Assembly: GCA_965207735.1 (NCBI GenBank)
Contig: OZ242296.1
Span: 2,176,001 to 2,240,000, forward strand
DNA from: Candidatus Versatilivorator sp.
GTDB taxonomy: Bacteria; Acidobacteriota; Terriglobia; Versatilivoradales; Versatilivoraceae
Direction: 5' to 3'
DNA length: 64,000 nucleotides
Position numbers and translations under genes: made by a program. The notes under the pieces were generated by a model, which was not told the DNA's origin, ran no database searches, and saw only the letters and a list, made by a program, of their open reading frames with translations. Positions 38,553 to 64,000 of the stretch are shown here, one piece after another (position 1 is the first letter of the stretch; the number at the start of each line of letters is the position of its first letter).

Positions 38553-39971
38553 CTACAAGATCCTCGGCGAGAGGAAGAAGACCAGCTCGCGGGTTTCCCG
38601 GACCAGGGATCGATTGCGGAAGAGGGCGCCCACGATGGGAATTTCGCCCAGCCCGGGCACCTGGCCGCGGCTGTCCTGGCGGCTGTCGATCAGGATTCCT
38701 CCGATCGCCACCGTGCCTCCGTTGTTTACCAGGATAGTGGTGGTGGTCTGGTGGGTGTTGACAGTGGGAATCCCCTGGACCTGGCGGGAAAAATCGGGTG
38801 TGGAATTTTCGATGTCCACGCTCAGCAGGATGGCGTCCTGCCGGGTGATCTGGGGGGTCACGGTGAGGCGCAGCACGAAATCGATGAAGCGGGCCGAGAC
38901 GGTGTTGTTCACGGTGGTCTGGATCGGAATCTGGATCCCCTGCTTGACCACCCCTTCCACGTTGTTCTGGGTCAGGATCTTGGGCTTGGAGAGCAGCTTG
39001 GCGTTCCCCTTGCGCTCGGCGGCGGTGATGAGGGCGTCGAGGACGAAGTCGGCCGCCAGGCCTGCGGCAAGAGTGAGGGGGCGGGCGGCTGCGCCGGTTT
39101 GCAGGTCGAGGCTCAGCCGCGACCGCTGCTCCCCCGAGGCCGATTCTCCGCCGGAGGCGGGAGCATCCAGCAGCGGAAAGGGGCTGAAGGCCGGCGCCGA
39201 GCCCGATCCTTCCTGCTGCCCTGTCCGGGCCTGCCGCCCGTAGAGGGCGCTCCACTGGACCCCGATGTCCTGCAGGAAACTCCGGCTGGCAGCCACTACC
39301 CGGGCTTCGATCTCCACCTGGCGGACCTTGCGGTCCAGCTCCCGCAAGAGGGCGTCCACCGCCTCCAGCCTGGGCGGAATGTCCGAAACGACCAGGGCGT
39401 TGGTGCGTTCATCCACGATGATGTCTCCGCGGGGGGAGAGCGCCTTCTTGAGGATGGGGCTCAATTCCGCGGCCTTGGCGAAGCTGGGCCGGCGAATCCG
39501 CGTCTCCAGGTCGGCCGCCGCCACTCTGGCCTGGGCCAGCCGCTGTTGCTGCTGCTGTTCCGCCTCCAGGGTCGAGAGCCTGGAGATCCTGAGCACGTTG
39601 CCGCTCAAGTGCCTGGCCATGCCCTGGTTCTCCAGCACCACCTCCAGAGCCTGGTCCCAGGGCACCTCCTTGAGGAATAGGGTGAGGGACCCTTCCACGT
39701 CGGGGTCCAGGACGATGTTGAGGCCGCTGATGCCGCCGATGAGGCGAAAGAAGTCCTTGAGGTCGGCGTCCTTCAGCTGCAGCGAGATTCGTTCCCCGGA
39801 GTAGGCAACCTTCTCCGTGGAAGCCGGAGGCCGCGCTTCGGCGGCGGGCTCGGGTTTCGGCCCGCCGGACTCCTCCGCGCCACTCCAGCCCCATGGCCCA
39901 GCCGCCCCCTGCCAGCAAAGCCAGAGCCCGCAGCCCCACAGGGCCAGGCGAAGTCGGGATTCAGTTCGCAT
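38553..39971 (-). CDS. pilQ: Type IV pilus secretin, short form
   Basis: YSGERISLQLKDAD, VPWDQAL, DERTNAL, QVEIEARVV, VPGLGEIPIVGALF, ELVFFLSPRIL. Confidence 0.9.
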   Translation of the reverse strand: MRTESRLRLALWGCGLWLCWQGAAGPWGWSGAEESGGPKPEPAAEARPPASTEKVAYSGERISLQLKDADLKDFFRLIGGISGLNIVLDPDVEGSLTLFLKEVPWDQALEVVLENQGMARHLSGNVLRISRLSTLEAEQQQQQRLAQARVAAADLETRIRRPSFAKAAELSPILKKALSPRGDIIVDERTNALVVSDIPPRLEAVDALLRELDRKVRQVEIEARVVAASRSFLQDIGVQWSALYGRQARTGQQEGSGSAPAFSPFPLLDAPASGGESASGEQRSRLSLDLQTGAAARPLTLAAGLAADFVLDALITAAERKGNAKLLSKPKILTQNNVEGVVKQGIQIPIQTTVNNTVSARFIDFVLRLTVTPQITRQDAILLSVDIENSTPDFSRQVQGIPTVNTHQTTTTILVNNGGTVAIGGILIDSRQDSRGQVPGLGEIPIVGALFRNRSLVRETRELVFFLSPRIL

Positions 39972-40935
39972 GGTTGGCCTCCCCAGGCGCCGGATGCAAC
40001 TTCTTGACCACACGGCGGCTGCGCCTCCCTCCGGCGTCGCCCTCAACCCGCTCGGAAAAGACCACCCCGTCCCCGCCGATCTCCAGGACCTTGCCGTCGA
40101 ACAGGCGGTCTCCCTTCTTCAGCAGAAAGGAGCGGTCCCGACGGCCGGTGGCCAGGGCCGTGTATTCACCTCCGGCCACAACCAGCCCCACCAGCTTCAG
40201 TTCCGATACCCGTTGGCCCTTCAAGCCGCGCGGCCTGACGGCGGCAGGGGCGGCGGGAGGAAGGGGCGTGGAAGACCGCGGGACGCCGAAGGGATCGCGC
40301 CGCCCTCGGGCCCGATAGGGGTAGGCGTTCTGCCCTGCAGGGGGCGCGGGATCGGCGGGGACCTCGACGGCAGAGGCGGCCGGCCGGTAGCGATGGAGAA
40401 CGGCAGTGAGGTCGGCGGTGAGGGTGTGGCGAGAATCCTCCGGGCCGGCAGCCGCGATCCGCAGGTCCTCCAGGCTCACGATGGGGGCCAGCCCGGCCAG
40501 CTTGCCACAGAAGCCTCCCAGGTCGTGGTAAGCGCCGGCCAGCACCAGCCCGTGGGGTTCCCGGAAGAAAGTTTCTCCCTCCTGTGCGGGCTTCTTTCGA
40601 ATCCCCTTGACCTTCAATCCGGACGCCGCTGCCGCTTCCTGCAGATGCCCCAGCAGGCCCATCGCCTCCTCCTCCGGCAGGGCCGCCTCGAGACTTGCCA
40701 GCTTCGAGGCCAGCCTCCGGTTCCGGCCGGACCGCTCCTGGAGCTGCCGCTCCAGCCCTGCTCCCTGCCCCGCCTCCCGGCTCAACGTTTCCAACTGCCG
40801 CCGGCGCAGCTCGATTTCAGCTCCGTACCCGGAGACGAACAGATACCAGCCCAGTCCCAGGACCAGTCCACCCATGCCCAAGGGAATTCCCAGGCGCTGC
40901 AGCCAAGGAGGGATGTGGGTAGTTGTGAGGGTCAT
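39961..40935 (-). CDS. pilO: PilO-PilP fusion protein
   Basis: TM and coiled coil, GAYHDLGGF..LAPIV (PilO); RRDPF and ELKLVGLV..GD (PilP) in one frame. Confidence 0.75.
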   Translation of the reverse strand: MTLTTTHIPPWLQRLGIPLGMGGLVLGLGWYLFVSGYGAEIELRRRQLETLSREAGQGAGLERQLQERSGRNRRLASKLASLEAALPEEEAMGLLGHLQEAAAASGLKVKGIRKKPAQEGETFFREPHGLVLAGAYHDLGGFCGKLAGLAPIVSLEDLRIAAAGPEDSRHTLTADLTAVLHRYRPAASAVEVPADPAPPAGQNAYPYRARGRRDPFGVPRSSTPLPPAAPAAVRPRGLKGQRVSELKLVGLVVAGGEYTALATGRRDRSFLLKKGDRLFDGKVLEIGGDGVVFSERVEGDAGGRRSRRVVKKLHPAPGEANHAN

Positions 40936-41050: not shown

Positions 41051-41740
41051 CGGCTCAACTGCGGGCTGGGCCCTCTCGCGACGCCGAGTTTGCCCCCCTC
41101 CGGCTCGACTGCGGGCGGAGCACTTTCGCGACGCCGAGTATGCCCCCCTCCGGCTCGACTGCGGGCGGAGCACTTTCGCGACGCCGAGTATGCCCCCCTC
41201 CGGCTCGACTGCGGGCTCCGCCCTCTCGCCGACTCCCCCTCAAGGGGGGAGTGATACTTGAGGCTTGCAGGGGGCGCCTTGCCCGATTCCTGGGCGGGAT
41301 GTAAACCATGTTCCCGGTCTAAAGTGTAAACGCCGTTCCCGGTTAGTACCCGGTATCACTCCCCCCTTGAGGGGGAGTCGCAGAAGTCGAGCCGAATGGC
41401 GAAGGCTGATGCGGTGGGGGGCCAGACGCCGGCGCAGCTTTGGGGCAACGCGTGCCCTTGAAGCAGGTCCGTCTCGCTTTGTGGCTCTGCGAGCACTGCC
41501 GATCGTCACTTACGGAACGCCGAGTCTGCCTCCCTCCGGATCGACTGCGGGCGGAGCACTTTCGCGACGCCGAGTATGCCCCCCTCCGGCTCGACTGCGG
41601 GCTCCGCCCTCTCGCCGACTCCCCCTCAAGGGGGGAGTGATACTTGAGGCTTGCAGGGGGCGCCTTGCCCGATTCCTGGGCGGGATGTAAACCATGTTCC
41701 CGGTCTAAAGTGTAAACGCCGTTCCCGGTTAGTACCCGGT
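41051..41740 (-). repeat. Family A array with 50-bp subrepeats
   Basis: 386-bp period (41240 vs 41626); CGGCTCGACTGCGGGC (or 1-nt variant) at 41051, 41101, 41151, 41201. Confidence 0.92.
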
Positions 41741-42153
41741 ATCACTCCCCCCTTGAGGGGGAGTCGCAGAAGTCGAGCCGAATGGCGAAGGCTGATGCGG
41801 TGGGGGTCAACCAACGCCTGGTACACTGTCTCCAGAACATCCATGCAGCTCTGAAACACCTCGTTGTTCCAAAAGCGCAATATTCTGTACCCCTTGCCCC
41901 GCAAATAATCATCGCGCTTCTCGTCGTAGGCGTGCCGTTCCCCATGCTGGCCGCCGTCCAGCTCGATCACCAACTTTCGGGACATGCAGGCGAAATCTAC
42001 GATGTAGGGACCTATCGGTTGCTGGCGCCGGAACTTGTAGCCGGCCAGTTGTTTCCTGCTCAGATAGTGCCACAGCAGGCCTTCTGCGTCGGTCTGTTCT
42101 TGGCGCAGAGTCTTTGCTCTTTCAAGTGTTTGCCGGGTGTAGGCGCGCATCAT
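41626..42153 (-). CDS. DUF559 (Vsr-like PD-(D/E)XK) endonuclease
   Basis: LRQEQTDAE.LLW..L, KFRRQQPIGPYIVDF, LVIELDGGQH, D..RD, GYRILRFWNNEV; C-terminus reads into the repeat. Confidence 0.92.
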   Translation of the reverse strand: MMRAYTRQTLERAKTLRQEQTDAEGLLWHYLSRKQLAGYKFRRQQPIGPYIVDFACMSRKLVIELDGGQHGERHAYDEKRDDYLRGKGYRILRFWNNEVFQSCMDVLETVYQALVDPHRISLRHSARLLRLPLKGGVIPGTNRERRLHFRPGTWFTSRPGIGQGAPCKPQVSLPP

Positions 42154-42311
42154 TCCCCCCACCTGTTGGTAGTCACTCTCGCGACGCCGCGTCTGCCCCC
42201 CTCCGGATCGACCGCGGGCTTCGCACTCTAGCGACGCCGAGTTTGCCCCCCTCCGGATCGACTGCGGGCTGCGCCCTTGTCTCTCCGACTCCCCCTCAAG
42301 GGGGGAGTGAT
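41741..42311 (-). mobile_element. Putative autonomous family A element (end - DUF559 - end), 571 bp
   Basis: 26-bp inverted termini ATCACTCCCCCCTTGAGGGGGAGTCG bracket the nuclease gene; mobility is inferred. Confidence 0.6.
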
Positions 42312-42329: not shown

Positions 42330-42953
42330 TCATTTCCGGTCTCCGGTTCGACCCGATGCTTCTTCCGAGCCCTTGCCGGGTTGGTCGACAACGGCCTCCT
42401 CGAGGGAAAGGGCAAAGGCATACTGGCCGTCCTGCTCCTGGAAGTGGACCAGCTCCACTCGATGGAATTCGCCGGTGCGCTGCAAGCGGGCGATGAATTC
42501 CGAGACCCGCTCGGATTGGGCCGAGACCAGCCCGCGGAGCGAGAAGGACCCGTCCTTCCGGCTCACTTCCTGCAAGCGCAGCCCCGGAACGGCCTGGACG
42601 CAGTCTCCCAGCAGATCCAGCAGCCTGGCTGGACGCGCCTGGCGGGCCCGGAGCTGCTCTATGGCCCGGATGCGCCCCTCCATCCACAGGCCCTGCTGCT
42701 CCAGTTGCCGGATCTCCCGGGACAGGTCCAGTTGGCGCTGCCTCTGCCCGCGCACCTGCTGGATTTGCGCCTCCAGCCGTTGGCCGCGGGCCGCCTGTTC
42801 CATGCGCCAACTCAGGAGGATCGACGCCGCGCCCAGCATCATCCCCAGGGACAGCAGCCGCTGAAAGGCGCGACCGCGGCCGGCCCGGCCCATCCACCCC
42901 GGCGGTTCCGACCGCCCGGCCCCCCATTCTCCCGCCAGGTTGATCCTAATCAT
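42330..42953 (-). CDS. pilN: Type IV pilus assembly protein PilN
   Basis: MIRINL motif, TM, coiled coil; follows pilM. Confidence 0.85.
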   Translation of the reverse strand: MIRINLAGEWGAGRSEPPGWMGRAGRGRAFQRLLSLGMMLGAASILLSWRMEQAARGQRLEAQIQQVRGQRQRQLDLSREIRQLEQQGLWMEGRIRAIEQLRARQARPARLLDLLGDCVQAVPGLRLQEVSRKDGSFSLRGLVSAQSERVSEFIARLQRTGEFHRVELVHFQEQDGQYAFALSLEEAVVDQPGKGSEEASGRTGDRK

Positions 42954-50548: not shown

Positions 50549-50790
50549 ATCCACGAAGGGTCACGAAGGGGTTGGAGGAAAACCCAGAGGGATCCGCCAA
50601 GGGTCGGTAAGGGGGAAGGAGTAGTGCCCCCCCGGGAGCGCGGGCGTCTCGCCCGCATTCGACTTGGCATGATGGAAACGATCCCCCTAAGGGTGAGTTG
50701 GGTGCGCTTTGCGAGGGAGTGGCCGGGGGCGGCAGACTGTTTGCAGGAATTCGGTTGCGGGCGGGACGCCCGCGTTCCCGGGGGGGCCAT
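50549..50790 (+). repeat. Composite of family C and family B repeats
   Basis: CCACGAAGGGTCACGAAGGGG followed by a full B unit; same order at 54707-55045. Confidence 0.8.
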
Positions 50791-50886
50791 TCCTTTGCCG
50801 GTTTCCCGTGCGTCCATACTTCGTTGGCGACTTGGCGCACCGCACCTATTTCTTGGACCATTCTCGCTTTGGAGGCAATACGGCTC

Positions 50887-51507
50887 GTGAAGAAAGACCA
50901 CCCGGGAGCGCGGGCGTCTCGCCCGCACAAGGCCTGGCACGAACGTGGCTACCTCCCGCACTTCGATGAAGCGGGAACGGTGCAATTTCTCACTTTCCGC
51001 CTTGTTGACGCGGTTCCCGCCGCGACAGTCACCGCCTGGAAAACCGAACTGAAGCTCAGTGGCGGTGAAACGGCCGACGATCCCCGCTGTGCGCGCCTTC
51101 GCGGCCGAATCGAGCGTTTCGCCGACCAGGGACACGGCGCCTGCTGGCTGAAAGACGCCCGCGCCGCGCAGGTGGTCCAGGATGCGCTGCTGCATTTTGA
51201 CGGTGAGCGGTATCGGCTTCTGGCGTGGGTCATCATGCCCAATCACGTGCATGCGGTAATCGAGACACTGCCCGGCTTTCCCTTGGACGGGGTCATTCAC
51301 TCCTGGAAGTCGTTCACTGCCAAGCGGGCCAATCGACTCTTGGGCCGGACTGGCGCCTTCTGGATGGGAGACTACTTCGACCGCTATGTCCGCGATGAGG
51401 CACATCTCTGGGACGTAATGCGTTACATGGAAGAGAACCCCGCAAAGGCGGGTTTGGTGCGCTTCGCAAGGGAGTGGCCGTGGATGGGAGGCTGTCTACA
51501 GGAATAA
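50887..51507 (+). CDS. REP-associated tyrosine transposase (RAYT, Y1 HUH)
   Basis: RGYLPH, FLTFRL, WVIMPNHVH, WKSFTA, FW..YFDR..RD, RYMEENP.KAGL; GGAGG RBS before GTG. Confidence 0.93.
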   Translation: MKKDHPGARASRPHKAWHERGYLPHFDEAGTVQFLTFRLVDAVPAATVTAWKTELKLSGGETADDPRCARLRGRIERFADQGHGACWLKDARAAQVVQDALLHFDGERYRLLAWVIMPNHVHAVIETLPGFPLDGVIHSWKSFTAKRANRLLGRTGAFWMGDYFDRYVRDEAHLWDVMRYMEENPAKAGLVRFAREWPWMGGCLQE

Positions 51508-51513
51508 GACCCA

Positions 51514-52126
51514 CCCGGGAGCGCGGGCGTCTCGCCCGCACAAGGCCTGGCACCATGGAAACGATCCCCCTAAAGGTGAGTTGGGTGCGCTTTGCGAGGG
51601 AATGGCCGCGGACGGCAGGCGGCTTGCAGGAATAAGGTTGCGGGCGGGACGCCCACCCGGGAGCGCGGGCGTCTCGCCCGCACAAGGCTCGGCACCATGG
51701 AAACGATCCCCCTAAAGGTGAGTTGGGTGCGCTTTGCGAGGGAATGGCCGCGGACGGCAGGCGGCTTGCAGGAATAAGGTTGCGGGCGGGACGCCCACCC
51801 GGGAGCGCGGGCGTCTCGCCCGCACAAGGCTCGGCACGAAGGAAACGATCCCCCTGAAGGTGAGTTGGGTGCGCTTTGCGAGGGAATGGCCGTGGATGGG
51901 AGGCTGTTTGCAGGAATAGGGTTGCGGGCGGGACGCCCGCGTTCCCGGGGGTTTGGTGCACTATGCGAGGGAATGGCCGTGGATGGGAGGCTGTTTGCAG
52001 GAATAAGGTTGCGGGCGAGACGCCCGCGTTCCCGGGGGTTGGTGCACTGTGCGTGGGAATGGCCCTGGACCGCAGGCTGTTTGCAGGAATAAGGTTGCGG
52101 GCGGGACGCCCGCGCTCCCGGGGGGG
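51514..52126 (+). repeat. Tandem array of family B
   Basis: 142-bp period (51514, 51656, 51798) followed by two shorter units of about 85 bp. Confidence 0.93.
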
Positions 52127-52194: not shown

Positions 52195-54456
52195 TTACTC
52201 TTCTTCCGGCGAATCCGCCGGGCAGCCGGCGGACTCCGGATCCGAATCCGGAATCAACACGCGGATGCGGTGATTGACCCGGTCCGAGAGGTAAATCCTG
52301 CCGGTGCCGGCAATCGCCACGTCGGTGATGGCCCCCAGCCGGGCCTCGGTAGCGGGCACCCCGTCCCCGCTGTTCCCAATCATTCCCGTGCCCGCAATGG
52401 TGCTAATCGTCCCCGTGCAGGCATCCACCTTGCGGATTCTGAAGTTCACCGTGTCCGCGATGAACACGTTGCCCGAAGCGTCTACCGCCACGCCTTCGGG
52501 ATGCCCCAGCATGGCCTCGGCCGCCGGGCCTCCGTCCCCGCCATAACCGAACCGCCCCGTGCCCGCGATCGTGCTGATCGTCCCGGTCCCCGCCTCCACC
52601 TTGCGGATCCGGCTGTTCAACGTGTCCGCGATATAGACGTTGCCGGCGCCATCGACCGCCACACCGACCGGAAGCCTGAGCATGGCCTCGATCGCCGGGC
52701 CCCCGTCTCCGCCGTATCCATGACCGAGCCGTCCTCCGATGCCGGCAATTGTGCTGATCGTCCCCTTTGAAGCATCCACCTTGCGGATGCGGGAGCTGGC
52801 CCTGTCGGAGATGTAGAGGTTGCCGGCGATGTCGACCGCCACGTCATGAGGGTACGCCAGCATGGCCTCGGTCGCCGGGCCCCCGTCCCCGCCATAACCG
52901 AACCGCCCCGTGCCCGCGACCGTGCTGATCGTCCCGGTCCCCGCCTCCACCTTGCGGATCCGGTGATTGTAGGTGTCGGCGAGGTAGATGCTCCCGGAAT
53001 CATCCGCCGCAACGCCCACGGGGAACCCCAATCGGGCCCCGGTGGCCCGTTCGCCGTCGCCGCTGTCACCTCCTTCTCCCGTCCCCGCCCGGGTGGTGAT
53101 CCCGCCCGCCGAGAGGCTCGACTGGCGGATCCGGTTATAGCCGTAGTCCGCGGTGAAGATGTTGCCGAAGCCATCCACCGCCAGGCCGCGTGGTCTCGAG
53201 AGCTTGCCGGGCCCGGCCAGGGAATTATCCACCTGTCCCCCGCCGGCAATCGTGTCGATCGTGCCCGTCTCCGCGTCCAGCTTGCGGACCCGGTTATGGG
53301 CAGCGATATAGACGTTTCCGGCGCCGTCCACCGACACCCCCCTAACCAATCCGACTCGGGCCTCGGTCGCCGGGCCCCCGTCCCCGCTGTAACCGCGCTC
53401 CCCCACGCCCGCGATCGTTTGGATCGTCCCGGTGGCTCCATCCACCTTGCGGATGCGGTACCAGTCCGCGATGTAGAGATTGCCGGCGCCGTCCAACGCC
53501 ACTCCCTCGATTCGGCTCAGTCCAGCCTCGATGGCGGGTCCGCCGTCCCCGCTGAAACGAGCTTCTCCGTTCCCCGCGACGGTGCTGATCACGCCGCTGG
53601 CCCCATCCACCATGCGGATGCGGTCGTTCCCGTAATCCGCCACGTAGAGCTTTCCGGAATCATCCACCGCCAGGCCCCGCATCTCTCCCAACTGCGCCTC
53701 GGTGGCCGGGGCCCCGTCTCCGTCGAAGCCCCGCTCTCCGGTCCCTGCGACCGTACTGATCGATCCCGTGGCCCCATCCACTTTGCGGATGCGGAATCTG
53801 CCCCCGATGTAGAGGTTCCCGGCGGCATCCACCGCCAAGTCGCCGGCAAAGAGCCGGGCTTCGGTCGCCGGGCCCCCGTCCCCGCTGTAACCGCGTTTTC
53901 CCGTGCCGGCCACCACGCTGATGGTTCCCGTCATCGGGTCCACCTTGCGAACCACGGTGCCGGCCGGGATGTAGAGGTTGCCCTGACCGTCCACCGCCAC
54001 CGCGCCGGGGAATCCCACCTGAGCCTCCCTTGCCGGCCCACCGTCGCCGACCCGGCCCGGTTCGCCGGTGCCGGCGATCGTGTCAATCATTCCCGTCACC
54101 CCGTCCACCCTGCGGATGCGGTGGTGTCCCCAATCGGCGATGTAGAGATTGCCGCCGGAATCGACCGCCACCGCACGGGGGGACTCGAGCCAGGCCCGGG
54201 TGGCCGGGCTGCGGTCCCAGACGTCGTCGTTCCCCGCAACGGAGTCGAGCGTGTAGCCCGAGTGGGAAATGTCGATCGGTTCAACGACGTCTTGCCCGAG
54301 GAGCATGCAGGGAGCCAGGAGGAGGGCCAGTCCGGCGGCGACGGCAACCGTCATCTCCAGCAGGGCCCGGCCAAGCGTCCCACGGTCGCCTTCGGAGAGC
54401 CCATCTCCCGGATTGGTCAAGTGGATGGAGTGGCTACTGGAATCGGGGTAAATCAT
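52195..54456 (-). CDS. Secreted/anchored NHL-repeat beta-propeller protein
   Basis: About 12 repeats of P.GVAVD..GNLYIAD..N.RIRKVD..TG.I.T.AG.G..G..GDGGPA; AGGAGG RBS; hydrophobic leader. Confidence 0.92.
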   Translation of the reverse strand: MIYPDSSSHSIHLTNPGDGLSEGDRGTLGRALLEMTVAVAAGLALLLAPCMLLGQDVVEPIDISHSGYTLDSVAGNDDVWDRSPATRAWLESPRAVAVDSGGNLYIADWGHHRIRRVDGVTGMIDTIAGTGEPGRVGDGGPAREAQVGFPGAVAVDGQGNLYIPAGTVVRKVDPMTGTISVVAGTGKRGYSGDGGPATEARLFAGDLAVDAAGNLYIGGRFRIRKVDGATGSISTVAGTGERGFDGDGAPATEAQLGEMRGLAVDDSGKLYVADYGNDRIRMVDGASGVISTVAGNGEARFSGDGGPAIEAGLSRIEGVALDGAGNLYIADWYRIRKVDGATGTIQTIAGVGERGYSGDGGPATEARVGLVRGVSVDGAGNVYIAAHNRVRKLDAETGTIDTIAGGGQVDNSLAGPGKLSRPRGLAVDGFGNIFTADYGYNRIRQSSLSAGGITTRAGTGEGGDSGDGERATGARLGFPVGVAADDSGSIYLADTYNHRIRKVEAGTGTISTVAGTGRFGYGGDGGPATEAMLAYPHDVAVDIAGNLYISDRASSRIRKVDASKGTISTIAGIGGRLGHGYGGDGGPAIEAMLRLPVGVAVDGAGNVYIADTLNSRIRKVEAGTGTISTIAGTGRFGYGGDGGPAAEAMLGHPEGVAVDASGNVFIADTVNFRIRKVDACTGTISTIAGTGMIGNSGDGVPATEARLGAITDVAIAGTGRIYLSDRVNHRIRVLIPDSDPESAGCPADSPEEE

Positions 54457-60352: not shown

Positions 60353-62548
60353 ATGGTGAAGAGAAAGAAAAAGAGACGCACTCAGCGCAGGCGCTTGGAC
60401 TCGGGGCCGGCTTCCTCGCCTCAAGCCATGGTCTCCGTCAAAGCCGGGTCCGCAAAAACGCAGTCGTCCTCCGCTCCCCGGCAGGCGACCGGGTTTTTCG
60501 ACGGAATCTCGCGCCGGGATGCGCCGGCCGCCCTGGCTCTGGGCCTGCTGGCGGGGGTCTGCTACCTGCCCGCGATGCTTTGGGGCGGCTTTGTCTGGGA
60601 TGACTTCATCTGGTCTCAGTCCCGGGCGGTCCGAGAGTGGTCCGGTCTCGGCGCCATCTGGACCTGGCCAAATCTGATTGAGAAAGAGGCGCACTACTGG
60701 CCGCTGACCTATACCACCTTCTGGCTGGAACACAAGATGTGGGGACTCGAGCCGGCCGGCTATCACGTCGTCAACGTGCTGCTGCACCTGCTCAACACCC
60801 TGCTGGTGTGGCGCCTGCTGCTGCGTTTGGCCGTGCCCGGGGCCTGGATTGCAGCCGCCGTGTTTGCCGTGCACCCGCTGCACGTGGAGTCGGTGGCCTG
60901 GATTTTCGAGCGCAAGGACGTGCTATCCGGTCTTTTCTACCTGGCTGCCGTGCTGGTGTGGCTGCGCTTCCTGGAAAAACCGCGACCCTGGCGCTACGGC
61001 CTGGCGCTGCTGCTGTTCGCGGCGGGCCTGTTGAGCAAGTCCATGGTGGTGACGCTGCCGGCGGCCTTGCTGATTGTCCAGTGGTGGAGGAACGGCCGCA
61101 TCGCGGTTCGGGATCTGCAGCGGGTGGCGCCGTTCTTCCTGGTGGCGCTGCTCATCACGGCACTGGATCTCTACTCGGTCGGTTCGAAGTCCAGTCTGCT
61201 GGACTACTCGCTTCCCGAGAAGATGCTCATCGCGTCGCGGGCCTTGTGGTTCTACGCGGGCAAGCTGGCCTGGCCAACCGATCTGGCCGTCATCTACCCG
61301 CGGTGGGACATCAGCCTCGGGGACCCCTGGGCATGGCTCTACCTGGCCGGGGCGGCGGCGCTGGCGGCAACGCTGTGGTTCCTGCGCCACAGGATTGGGC
61401 GCGGTCCGCTGGCCGGGGCGCTGTTCTTTGCGGTGACGCTGTCGCCGGTGCTGGGCTTCGTGAATCACGGCTACATGCAGTACTCCTTTGTGGCCGATCG
61501 CTTTCAATACCTGGCCGGCATCGGGGTGATGGCGGTCGTCATCGGCGCCGCCGTACAGGGCGCCGGCCGGCTGCCGGGCCGATTGAAGTCGGGGGCGGCG
61601 GGTCTACTGGTGGTGGTGCTGGCGCTTCTTGGAACCATGACCTGGCGCCAGGCGGAAATCTACCGGGACGCCGTCACCTTCTTCAGCCACATCGCCTCTC
61701 TCAACCCCGAGGCGCGGAGCGCTCACTACAATCTCAGCATCCATTTGACCAGGGCAGGCCGTCCGGAGGAAGCCCTGGCCGCCGCCCGGATGGCCGTGGA
61801 AAACCGCCCTCAGGCCAAAGACCTTTCCACCCTCGGCGCCGCGCTGATTGACATGGAACAGTACGTCGAGGCCGAGGAGGTCTTGCGCCGCGCCCTGGAG
61901 ATTGATTCGAGCCACAAGAATACTCTCCGGCAAATGGCCAGAATGCTCAGGGAACAAGTACGCTTCGAGGAAGCGCTGGAGGCATACCGCCGCTTGCTCG
62001 AAATCGACCCCGAGGACGCACTTGCCCACGGCTACACGGGCAATATACTGTTCAACCTACATCGACCCGACGAAGCCATCGAGCCCCTGAACAGGGCCCT
62101 GACACTCACCCGGGCCGCACGGTCGCTGACACCGGACTTGCCGACGCCGGAGGCTCTGCATGTCCTGCTGGGCAAGGCGTCGTGGGAAGCGGGCCGACTC
62201 CAAGTGGGAGAGGAGCACTTCCGGCAAGCTCTGCAACTCAATTCGCGCAATACAGAGGCACTCGAGCATATCGCCGTTTCGCATTTCAGGCAGAATCGTT
62301 TCCAGGAGGCGCTCGATCTGTATCGAACCCTGTTGGAGATCGATCCCGACAAGGCGTCCACCTACTCCAACCTGGGCGCGGCCTTGTATCAACTGGGCCG
62401 GTTCGAAGAAGCACGCCAAAGCCTGGAGCGCGCGCTCGCCCTGGACCCTACCCTGGAAATGGCCAGATCCAACCTCGAAAAGGTACGCAAGACCGTGCCA
62501 AAGCCGGGGGAAAGCGCGTTCACCCCGATGGCGCCCGCAAGGAAATGA
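60353..62548 (+). CDS. Second TMTC-like GT-C/TPR protein (tandem paralogue)
   Basis: Same motifs; DNA aligns to the upstream gene at a 2369-nt offset. Confidence 0.88.
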   Translation: MVKRKKKRRTQRRRLDSGPASSPQAMVSVKAGSAKTQSSSAPRQATGFFDGISRRDAPAALALGLLAGVCYLPAMLWGGFVWDDFIWSQSRAVREWSGLGAIWTWPNLIEKEAHYWPLTYTTFWLEHKMWGLEPAGYHVVNVLLHLLNTLLVWRLLLRLAVPGAWIAAAVFAVHPLHVESVAWIFERKDVLSGLFYLAAVLVWLRFLEKPRPWRYGLALLLFAAGLLSKSMVVTLPAALLIVQWWRNGRIAVRDLQRVAPFFLVALLITALDLYSVGSKSSLLDYSLPEKMLIASRALWFYAGKLAWPTDLAVIYPRWDISLGDPWAWLYLAGAAALAATLWFLRHRIGRGPLAGALFFAVTLSPVLGFVNHGYMQYSFVADRFQYLAGIGVMAVVIGAAVQGAGRLPGRLKSGAAGLLVVVLALLGTMTWRQAEIYRDAVTFFSHIASLNPEARSAHYNLSIHLTRAGRPEEALAAARMAVENRPQAKDLSTLGAALIDMEQYVEAEEVLRRALEIDSSHKNTLRQMARMLREQVRFEEALEAYRRLLEIDPEDALAHGYTGNILFNLHRPDEAIEPLNRALTLTRAARSLTPDLPTPEALHVLLGKASWEAGRLQVGEEHFRQALQLNSRNTEALEHIAVSHFRQNRFQEALDLYRTLLEIDPDKASTYSNLGAALYQLGRFEEARQSLERALALDPTLEMARSNLEKVRKTVPKPGESAFTPMAPARK

Positions 62549-62550
62549 GT

Positions 62551-64000
62551 TGTCCACGAAGGGGGTCCGTGCAGAACCGTGACGGGGTCAAAAGACTTAT
62601 CCACGAAGGGGGTCCGAGAAGAATCGTGACGGGGTCAAAAGGCTTATCCACGAAGGGGGTCCGAGAAGAATCGTGACGGGGGTTAAAAGATTTCCACGAA
62701 GGGGCACGAAGGTCCACGAAGGGGCACTAAGGCGGCGGAGGTGGATCGGGAGGGGTGCCAGGGGTCGGGTAGGGAAAAGAAAAAGATGTCCACGAAGGGA
62801 GTCCGAGAAGAATCGTGACGGGGTTAACAGATTTCCACGAAGGGGCACGAAGGGGCACTAAGGGGTTGGAGGTGGATCGGGAGGGGGGTGCCAGAGTTCG
62901 GGTAGGAAAAGGAAAAAGATTTCCACGAAGGGAGTCTATGCAGAACCGTGACAGGGGAAAAGGCTTATCCACGAAGGGAGTCCGTGCAGAACCGTGACGG
63001 GGGAAAAGACTTTTCCACGAAGGGGCACGAAGGACCACGAAGGGGCACTAAGGCGTTGGGGGTGGATCGGGAGGGGGTTGCCAGGGTTCGGGTAGGAAAT
63101 GGAAAAAGACATCCACGAAGGGAGTCATTGCAGAACCGTGACGGGGTCAAAAGACTTATCCACGAAGGGAGTCTATGCAGAACCGTGACGGGGGGGAAAG
63201 GCTTATCCACGAAGGGGCACGAAGGTCCACGAAGGGGCACTAAGGCGGCGGAGGTGGATCGGGAGGGGGGTGCCAAGGGTCGGGAAGGGAAAGGAAAAAG
63301 ATTTCCACGAAGGGAGTCTTTGCAAAACCGTGACGGGGAGAAAAGGCTTATCCACGAAGGGGCACGAAGGACCACGAAGGGGCACTAAGGCGTTGGGGGT
63401 GGATCGAGAGGGAGTTGCCAAGGGTCAGGAAGGAAAAGGGAAAAGAAATCCACGAAGGGAGTCCATGCAGAACCCTGACGGGGTCAAAAGACTTATCCAC
63501 GAAACAGTATATTGCCGACCTGGTTTGCTTTGAACAGGTTGAGGATTTCCTTTAACCCCCATCACGATTCTTCTCCGAGCCCTCCGTGGAAATCTTTTTC
63601 CCGTTTCCCCCCTTCCCAATCCCTGGCAACCCCCTCTCGAATTACCTCCGACGCCTTCGTGCCCCTTCGTGGTCCTTCGTGCCCCTTCGTGGAAATCTGT
63701 TAACGCCGCCACGATTCTTCTCGGACCCCCTTCGTGGAAATCCCTTCACCCCCGTCACGATTCTTCTCCGAACCCTCCGTGGACATCTTTTCCCCTTTTC
63801 ACCCCTTCCCGAACCCTGGCAACCCCCTCTCGAATTACCTCCGATGCCTTAGTGCCCCTTCGTGGTCCTTCGTGCCCGTTCGTGGAAATCTGTTAACCCC
63901 CGTCACGATTCCCCTCCGAACCCTCCGTGGAAATCATTTTCCCTTTTCTCCCCTTCTCGATCCGTGGCAACCCCCTCTCGAATTACCTCCGATGCCTTAG
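62551..64000. repeat. Large family C array, direct (62551-63501) then inverted (about 63545 to window end)
   Basis: Many CCACGAAGGG(G)CACGAAGG and CAGAACCGTGACGGGG units; orientation flips around 63502-63540. Confidence 0.93.
63502..63540 (+). pseudogene. Possible 13-codon remnant of a GxxExxY (PD-(D/E)XK) nuclease gene
   Basis: Translates KQYIADLVCFEQV, like the Y.AD(L/F)VC...IIVELK core; very short. Confidence 0.45.

Follow-up and report, generated by a model that had tools for sequence, protein, structure and literature searches.

We know of no mover for the BoxC-type repeats, although they have been known for decades, and of no function for DUF559, a widespread protein family. In the sections of the TM(ECO) study considered here, a consensus is given, inverted pairs of two types are described, and no mobility gene is reported beside the motif (PMC4666352). 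On the protein side, DUF559 has been grouped with the I-Bth0305I family and Vsr, going by the part of the study used here (PMC3424549); a further source, likewise taken in part, describes EDxHD as the motif of the I-Bth0305I family and Vsr as a nicking enzyme (PMC3239194), and YcjD is listed as a predicted member in the portion considered of a third (PMC1189080). A literature search that had subscription journals mostly outside its reach found no paper tying DUF559 or YcjD to these repeats; flanking genes are listed in the supplements to PMC4666352, and ycjD may be among them.

In the window, that is, the whole 64-kb stretch of DNA analysed here, the gap between pilN and pilO contains on the minus strand a left end, a DUF559 open reading frame and a right end, followed by an array of ends (Table 1). 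We use T for the 26-nt terminus, G000 for this closed 5.26-Mb genome (Candidatus Versatilivorator sp.) and G0xx for other genomes. As the first-pass annotation had claimed, the DUF559 gene lies between 26-nt inverted hairpin ends: both T copies were located, and T folded into a hairpin. It was also right in stating that the ORF lacks a stop of its own. The frame, in which a second ATG at 42150 follows the start, meets no stop ahead of the right end; its tail crosses the right end and the spacer, and its 175 codons run to the TGA at 41626 within the next T copy. The span of 41626 to 42311 proposed for the element therefore stands at 42311 and falls at 41626, which is only the borrowed stop; the true edge is 41741, and the element proper comprises 571 bp (41741-42311). 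The first base of the left end completes the TAA on the pilN side, and the G-rich stretch 5' of the ATG could possibly act as a ribosome-binding site. The GC content of the ORF is 0.56 versus 0.68-0.69 in pilN and pilO. No sigma-70-like promoter was found, and Rfam gave just one sub-threshold match to a miRNA hairpin. Sequencing data for excision or expression covered 4 of 24 listed runs, all of them contigs, whose joints lie within repeats and were disregarded; a single contig of 184 nt on the gene, which stems from an RNA library, was counted as no evidence of expression. Elsewhere in the window, a 47-nt tandem repeat field occupies 62500-63560, and a gene built from repeats of ~165-171 nt lies at 52200-54200.

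Table 1. Features around the pilN-pilO gap and the RAYT-like gene, in positions of the window.
Feature	Positions	Strand
Left end: T at 42286-42311 (8-bp hairpin), second hairpin, G-rich mirror tract	42246..42311	-
Subterminal copy (~50 nt) of the left end's inner half (repeat family D17) and G-rich stretch 5' of the ATG	42154..42245	-
DUF559 ORF, 175 aa; nuclease domain at about 41812-42129	41626..42153	-
Right end: inverted T at 41741-41766, its own second hairpin, G-rich mirror tract	41741..41808	+
99-nt spacer of the outward-facing doublet (right end, spacer, left end)	41642..41740	.
Left end (T at 41616-41641), subterminal repeat, ~100-nt non-coding filler with no detectable gene origin	41421..41641	-
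Second doublet: right end 41355-41420, spacer 41256-41354, left end with T at 41230-41255, further subterminal repeats	41093..41420	.
pilN, upstream host gene	42330..42953	-
pilO, downstream host gene (directly after pilN in G004)	39961..40935	-
Sole Y1_Tnp (RAYT-like) match in the genome, surrounded by a different REP of its own; competing mobiliser outside the element	50926..51507	+

The assignment of the gene product to DUF559 was confirmed by the Pfam HMM (PF04480; 139 bits, E 6e-41, above the cut-off). Its predicted model (pLDDT 89) consists of a single 114-aa domain with no N-terminal DNA-binding domain, and a Foldseek search with this model returned 3hrl (E 5e-9), 3r3p (E 4e-5) and 1vsr (E 0.012), of which we take 3r3p to be the homing endonuclease I-Bth0305I and 1vsr to be Vsr. 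The residues D53, E64, H70 and D77 were invariant in 39 sequences and are, by analogy, the putative catalytic residues. No recognised transposase of the DDE, HUH, serine or tyrosine type was detected by Pfam or Foldseek on the element's protein. The dN/dS values ranged from 0.07 to 0.20 (11 computable of 15 pairs). Between the genes of this genus and those of Nitrospirales, dS was above 2 or saturated and T was identical or nearly so, a constancy that would fit a protein reading T.

The reading that we prefer, with a probability of roughly 0.58, is that the gene and the inverted hairpin ends on either side of it form one travelling unit, whose Vsr-like nuclease would recognise and nick the ends, host break repair then copying them to new sites. 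The element is likely a selfish nuclease-plus-hairpin unit with the nuclease as its putative mover.

Across G000, T occurs in 143 exact copies and in 166 at up to three mismatches, 24-25 copies being located in the window, and the reversed T pattern used as a control had no match. The 166 copies form 88 clusters, among them 37 lone outward doublets, 38 single ends and no lone inward unit. Adjacent copies face outward in 58 pairs (with a spacer of ~100 nt or 26 nt) and inward in 17, and the commonest unit genome-wide is the tail-to-tail outward doublet of right end, spacer and left end. In the arrays at 1.3, 25.9, 41.1 and 46.7 kb of the window, the same ends indeed surround ~100-nt fillers, as had been noticed at first sight, but the view that these fillers are non-autonomous derivatives of the gene had to be given up for this genome. 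Searched against the gene with blastn, they gave only matches of 10-12 nt, and when three fillers were compared with the whole gene, 5, 80 and 194 of 500 shuffles scored as well, one of the three scores thus being marginal. As the fillers lack similarity to the gene and outward pairs dominate, the scattered unit in this genome is the doublet and not a deleted element.

The T clusters are concentrated around the gene: 15 of the 88 lie within 100 kb of it, where 3.3 would be expected if they were evenly distributed (with intergenic space taken as evenly spread), and 8 of the 11 arrays with at least three copies lie within 50 kb. Two other repeat families had 6 of their 70 and 3 of their 35 clusters within 100 kb of the gene. 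As the RAYT is only 9 kb away, this local excess does not on its own single out DUF559. The DUF559 gene itself is present as a single standalone copy, and the copy of G010 is located at the same site, so that a recent transposition of the gene of its own in this lineage is unsupported, which is a point against the proposal.

Within the genus, T was present in all 14 genomes (2-310 copies), and it was found in none of 27 other relatives outside the genus. An intact gene of the close clade was detected only in G000 and G010 (80% identical), at pilN-pilO in both species, and 12 of the 14 genomes were without it. Seven of the gene-less genomes of the genus contain 50-310 T copies, five of these seven being assembled in 1-3 contigs. 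The first-pass annotation had regarded a repeat abundance independent of DUF559 as evidence against its own proposal, and with these seven relatives, which have no intact gene of the clade, such independence was in part observed. The abundance of T in gene-less genomes counts against a strict dependence on the gene. Nor was T more homogeneous where the gene is present, as judged by the share of perfect copies, which was 0.88 in G000 and 0.52 in G010 with the gene, and 0.88 in G002, 0.76 in G012 and 0.74 in G009 without it.

An empty site in a relative, which had been proposed as a check, does exist: among 13 pilN-pilO junctions compared, that of G004 has pilO straight after pilN. At five others the gene is absent while ends, or decayed ends, are present, and G011 has a short unrelated spacer. 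At the same junction, G002 (L100 2246-2623) and G006 (L102) carry a PDDEXK_3 gene of the GxxExxY type between arrays of another short repeat, and G007 (L101) carries a deleted form of this PDDEXK_3 cassette; the junction is a hot spot for small nuclease cassettes (DUF559, PDDEXK_3).

Gene-less units of ~228 nt were found in five complete copies in G009 and one in G005. All six consist of both ends together with the first and last ~40-50 nt of the gene, and only 0-1 of 500 shuffles equalled their match to the gene. G009 also contains a sixth copy without the left end and one longer remnant. The remnant L093 keeps the 3' 140 nt of the gene, and a 3' remnant is present in G011; G009, G005 and G011 are the only gene-less genomes in which gene remnants were detected. 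The idea of deleted derivatives hence holds for G009 and G005, with their gene-derived mini-units, and not for the present genome, in which the fillers are not derived from the gene. When four mini-unit sites of G009 were compared with five relatives each, T was found at 0 of 20 orthologous loci. The G005 mini-unit (L123) was kept outside this comparison because its flank is itself repeated. This flank (L123 1750-2400) harbours two more dispersed repeats, one of ~215-234 nt and one of ~400 nt; five relatives were searched for them and had 28-45 matches each. The insert of L128 in G009 is ~320 nt long and extends 40-50 nt past T on each side, and comparison of its site revealed no target duplication. 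Exact adjacent repeats of 2-12 nt were likewise present at 0 of 14 units, so that no classical target duplication was found.

The gene is single-copy, under purifying selection and fixed in its site, as would also be expected of a domesticated or addictive nuclease with a repair or toxin-like role, in which case the hairpins would only regulate or stabilise its RNA and the repeats would spread via their own structural instability. TM(ECO) loci have indeed been reported as unstable, and no mobility gene was found, according to the part of the study used (PMC4666352). However, the gene is absent from 12 of the 14 genomes of the genus, and the gene-derived mini-elements are dispersed and missing at orthologous sites, so that we consider domestication highly improbable.

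In gene-less genomes T is abundant and homogeneous, and this would be accounted for if T were a REP-like substrate moved in trans, either by a RAYT/IS200-type HUH transposase or by host recombination alone, with DUF559 as captured cargo that has a host or selfish role. A Y1_Tnp match was present in all five gene-less relatives tested, and that of G000 lies 9 kb from the element. The single-strand HUH chemistry of IS200/IS605 is compatible with the lack of a target duplication, and both this lack and the ragged flanks would suit such a mover. Yet at 13 RAYT loci in the five gene-less relatives T was found within 1.5 kb in no case, whereas another REP was present at 9, and T carries neither a GTAG nor a CGTC tag. 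Moreover, a passenger gene fails to explain that the ends track the DUF559 tree across phyla, and genomes whose sole T copies flank the gene (see below for both) would be left unexplained. The RAYT as the cleaver of the T hairpin, which the first-pass annotation had named as a threat to its proposal, is thus not favoured by the loci, as these carry another REP, and we regard movement in trans as unlikely, though as the most probable of the alternatives. In the window, the Y1_Tnp gene is embedded in its own GC-rich REP (50630-52125), for which one probe counted 113 copies genome-wide.

Beyond the genus, a scan with one genome per species yielded 45 loci. The closest homologues, with 62-73% identity and the same T ends, were those of Nitrospirales, Binatia, a gammaproteobacterium, an alphaproteobacterium and an unclassified bacterium. 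In 39 searched genomes, T was present in 11 of 11 with a gene of the close clade and in 0 of 28 with a distant DUF559, and in G043 and G046 the only T copies are the element's own two. Among 151 Nitrospirales, T was found in 8 of 9 genomes with a close gene versus 13 of 142 without, which means that 13 of the 21 T-positive Nitrospirales lack the close gene; the ninth close-gene genome has other hairpin ends, and L134 is a close homologue with different ends. To DUF559 loci in general we applied a bracketing test (score of at least 36, 200 nt on either side). From the 87 loci, which do not include the duplicates L001, L130-L133 and L137, the fragment L070 and the weak matches L016-L026, five were set aside for short flanks. 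An inverted match between the flanks was detected at 59 of the remaining 82 loci, as compared to 0 of 2029 control windows, and 23 loci had no clear inverted pair. In a quick tree of 85 rows, the T-flanked proteins fall into one clade of 18 rows from four phyla, 16 of them T-positive (SH-aLRT 90), and the similarity of the ends correlated with that of the proteins (rho 0.35, or 0.37 once the T clade was left out; p 0.001 by permutation), kin being non-independent in these as in all cross-genome counts. On the two checks named by the first-pass annotation, whether DUF559 genes carry the local repeat family and whether genes and repeats co-vary, these data speak for gene and ends behaving as one unit. 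As a vehicle across phyla, phages were considered and rejected: distant DUF559 was present in only 2 of 50,697 phage and 44 of 72,556 plasmid records, with none at 60% identity. T had no exact match in viral_contigs.

At 8 of 13 close-clade loci the unit is inserted in hsdS, at one and the same position of the central linker, in 6 of the 8 within a single unbroken frame, and four further loci as well as the metagenome locus L160 share this spot. Lodging in hsdS offers a possible vehicle across phyla. The common spot, together with the EDxHD homing endonuclease I-Bth0305I as the nearest characterised fold, would also be in line with a homing mode, in which DUF559 would cleave a target that lacks the element, for example the hsdS linker, and gene conversion would then copy the element in, with the hairpins as read-through linkers and the scattered ends as by-products of repair. 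However, there is neither an intron or intein nor, in a protein of 114 aa, an N-terminal DNA-binding domain, and the unit and its derivatives occur at many unrelated sites. An empty hsdS allele of matching type was not found either (one metagenome scan with two loci, neither of them clean), and the shared site may represent one old insertion that is carried about with the restriction system. We therefore judge homing to be improbable, and continue with the travelling unit moved by its nuclease and host repair.

Some further observations concern the hsdS hosts. In L032, L033, L034, L035, L037 and L042, a nucleotidyltransferase-like domain is present at the start in the same frame, as confirmed by Pfam for L032. 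The hairpins of the close homologues L134 and L160, both located at the hsdS linker, are of other types or include additional ones; ends at this position may thus be exchangeable or stackable. An hsdS-like right flank (17 of 24 nt) was seen on 2 of 11 intergenic copies and is suggestive only. In G001 (L003), a different DUF559 with BoxC-type ends is located inside a 708-aa open frame that looks like a type I methyltransferase by eye.

The ends of the element resemble the BoxC repeats of E. coli, and the repeat family is likely related to them, with the plan of a hairpin plus a mirror tract, predicted to form a triplex, being kept. A hairpin with a mirror third strand was present at both element ends and on both sides of 38 of the 82 DUF559 loci, as opposed to 6 of 2000 control windows. 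The strict BoxC consensus flanks 15 of the 82 loci and a looser one 33. In E. coli, the strict pattern recovers the published 23 copies in MG1655. In K-12, a strict BoxC lies 167 nt downstream of the single-copy ycjD and no hairpin was seen upstream (L187 1706-1740); in another strain (L203), BoxC overlaps the 3' end of ycjD, just as T overlaps the end of the gene here. ycjD is present in 3378 of 5426 E. coli genomes, nearly always once. According to the part of the source used, ycjD replaces the eef operon depending on the phylogroup (PMC12817139). Strict BoxC counts were 23, 21, 34 and 15 in chromosomes with ycjD versus 6, 2, 2 and 19 without ycjD at that site (8 of 15 E. coli chromosomes), a contrast of four versus four that is confounded with phylogroup because the ycjD/eef swap follows it. 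The strain with 19 copies has no standalone DUF559 gene.

Comparison between genomes shows a unit with precise outer termini that crosses phyla, leaves gene-less derivatives and is absent at orthologous sites, and it equally shows the doublets and arrays of ends to which this unit gives rise. In the mechanism that we propose, DUF559 would bind and nick its own hairpin ends. As a hydrolytic nuclease of 114 aa cannot join DNA itself, the joining would be left to the host, and insertion would take place by host repair or recombination. Insertion by host repair would fit the lack of a target duplication as well as the 40-50 nt of neighbouring DNA carried along past T. The outward doublet would represent an end-to-end junction, with multimers of it making up the arrays; the enzyme may act best close to its own gene, and the repeats would persist after gene loss. 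A far broader proposal, which we advance tentatively and give somewhat less than an even chance, is that of a class of transposase-free mobile elements, in which a 114-aa Vsr-like nuclease nicks its own hairpin-and-mirror ends and host repair copies them. Such elements would cross phyla in frame within restriction genes and then seed hundreds of gene-less ends near their gene; ycjD and BoxC of E. coli would be the same system, and the GxxExxY cassettes a parallel one.

New at this locus are one exact end common to four phyla, gene-derived mini-elements with empty sites, the clustering around the gene and the counter-observation in gene-less genomes. If the pairing of gene and ends is true, it would address both the mover of BoxC and the function of DUF559. 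Another nuclease class besides RAYT would then take part in the spread of bacterial repeats, which is directly testable in E. coli K-12 with its ycjD and 23 BoxC copies. It would also explain the in-frame DUF559 domains and the hairpin-coded loops in housekeeping and restriction proteins.

In comparison to known systems, BoxC/PIT/TM(ECO) shares with the element a hairpin followed by a G-rich mirror tract, two end types in inverted doublets and variability between strains, as far as described in the sections of the study considered (PMC4666352). The ends differ in that G000 contains no match to the strict BoxC consensus and a ~35-nt hairpin takes the place of the 3-nt second loop. Like the element, the Caulobacter CIR, which we liken by description from part of its source, has two hairpin arms joined by a linker, its mover being unknown (PMC2229807). 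With the EDxHD homing endonuclease I-Bth0305I and Vsr, the element's protein has the same predicted fold and matching acidic and histidine residues in common, going by the portions of the studies used (PMC3239194, PMC3424549). In contrast to these enzymes, it comprises the catalytic domain only, either stands free or is read through in frame with no intron or intein involved, and is accompanied by hairpin ends at many unrelated sites.

The REPtron or REPIN-RAYT system, as presented in the parts of the literature used, resembles the element in its single-copy nuclease gene between inverted palindromes, in its many gene-less doublets and arrays between genes, and in the loss of the gene with repeats that stay (PMC3733652; bioRxiv 10.1101/2021.07.10.451892). 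Its enzyme is an HUH tyrosine transposase, however, whereas that of the element is a protein with a Vsr-like PD-(D/E)XK fold, and T is without the GTAG/CGTC tag that a REPtron has at the foot of the stem. RAYTs are described, in the source sections considered, as vertically inherited, whereas the gene and ends of the element cross phyla (62-73% identity) and occupy the same site only in G000 and G010; unlike a REPtron, moreover, the unit is frequently translated as part of a host gene. With an IS and its MITEs, the element shares terminal inverted repeats (26 bp here), a full-length form and internally deleted dispersed forms, the latter in G009 and G005 and not in G000. It differs from them in having no DDE transposase, and at none of 14 units was a target duplication found alongside, although the terminal AT may be a 2-bp duplication. 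As the defining enzyme, the tag and the duplication are not those of either group, the element, although similar in its working to a REPtron or to an IS with MITEs, is a member of neither.
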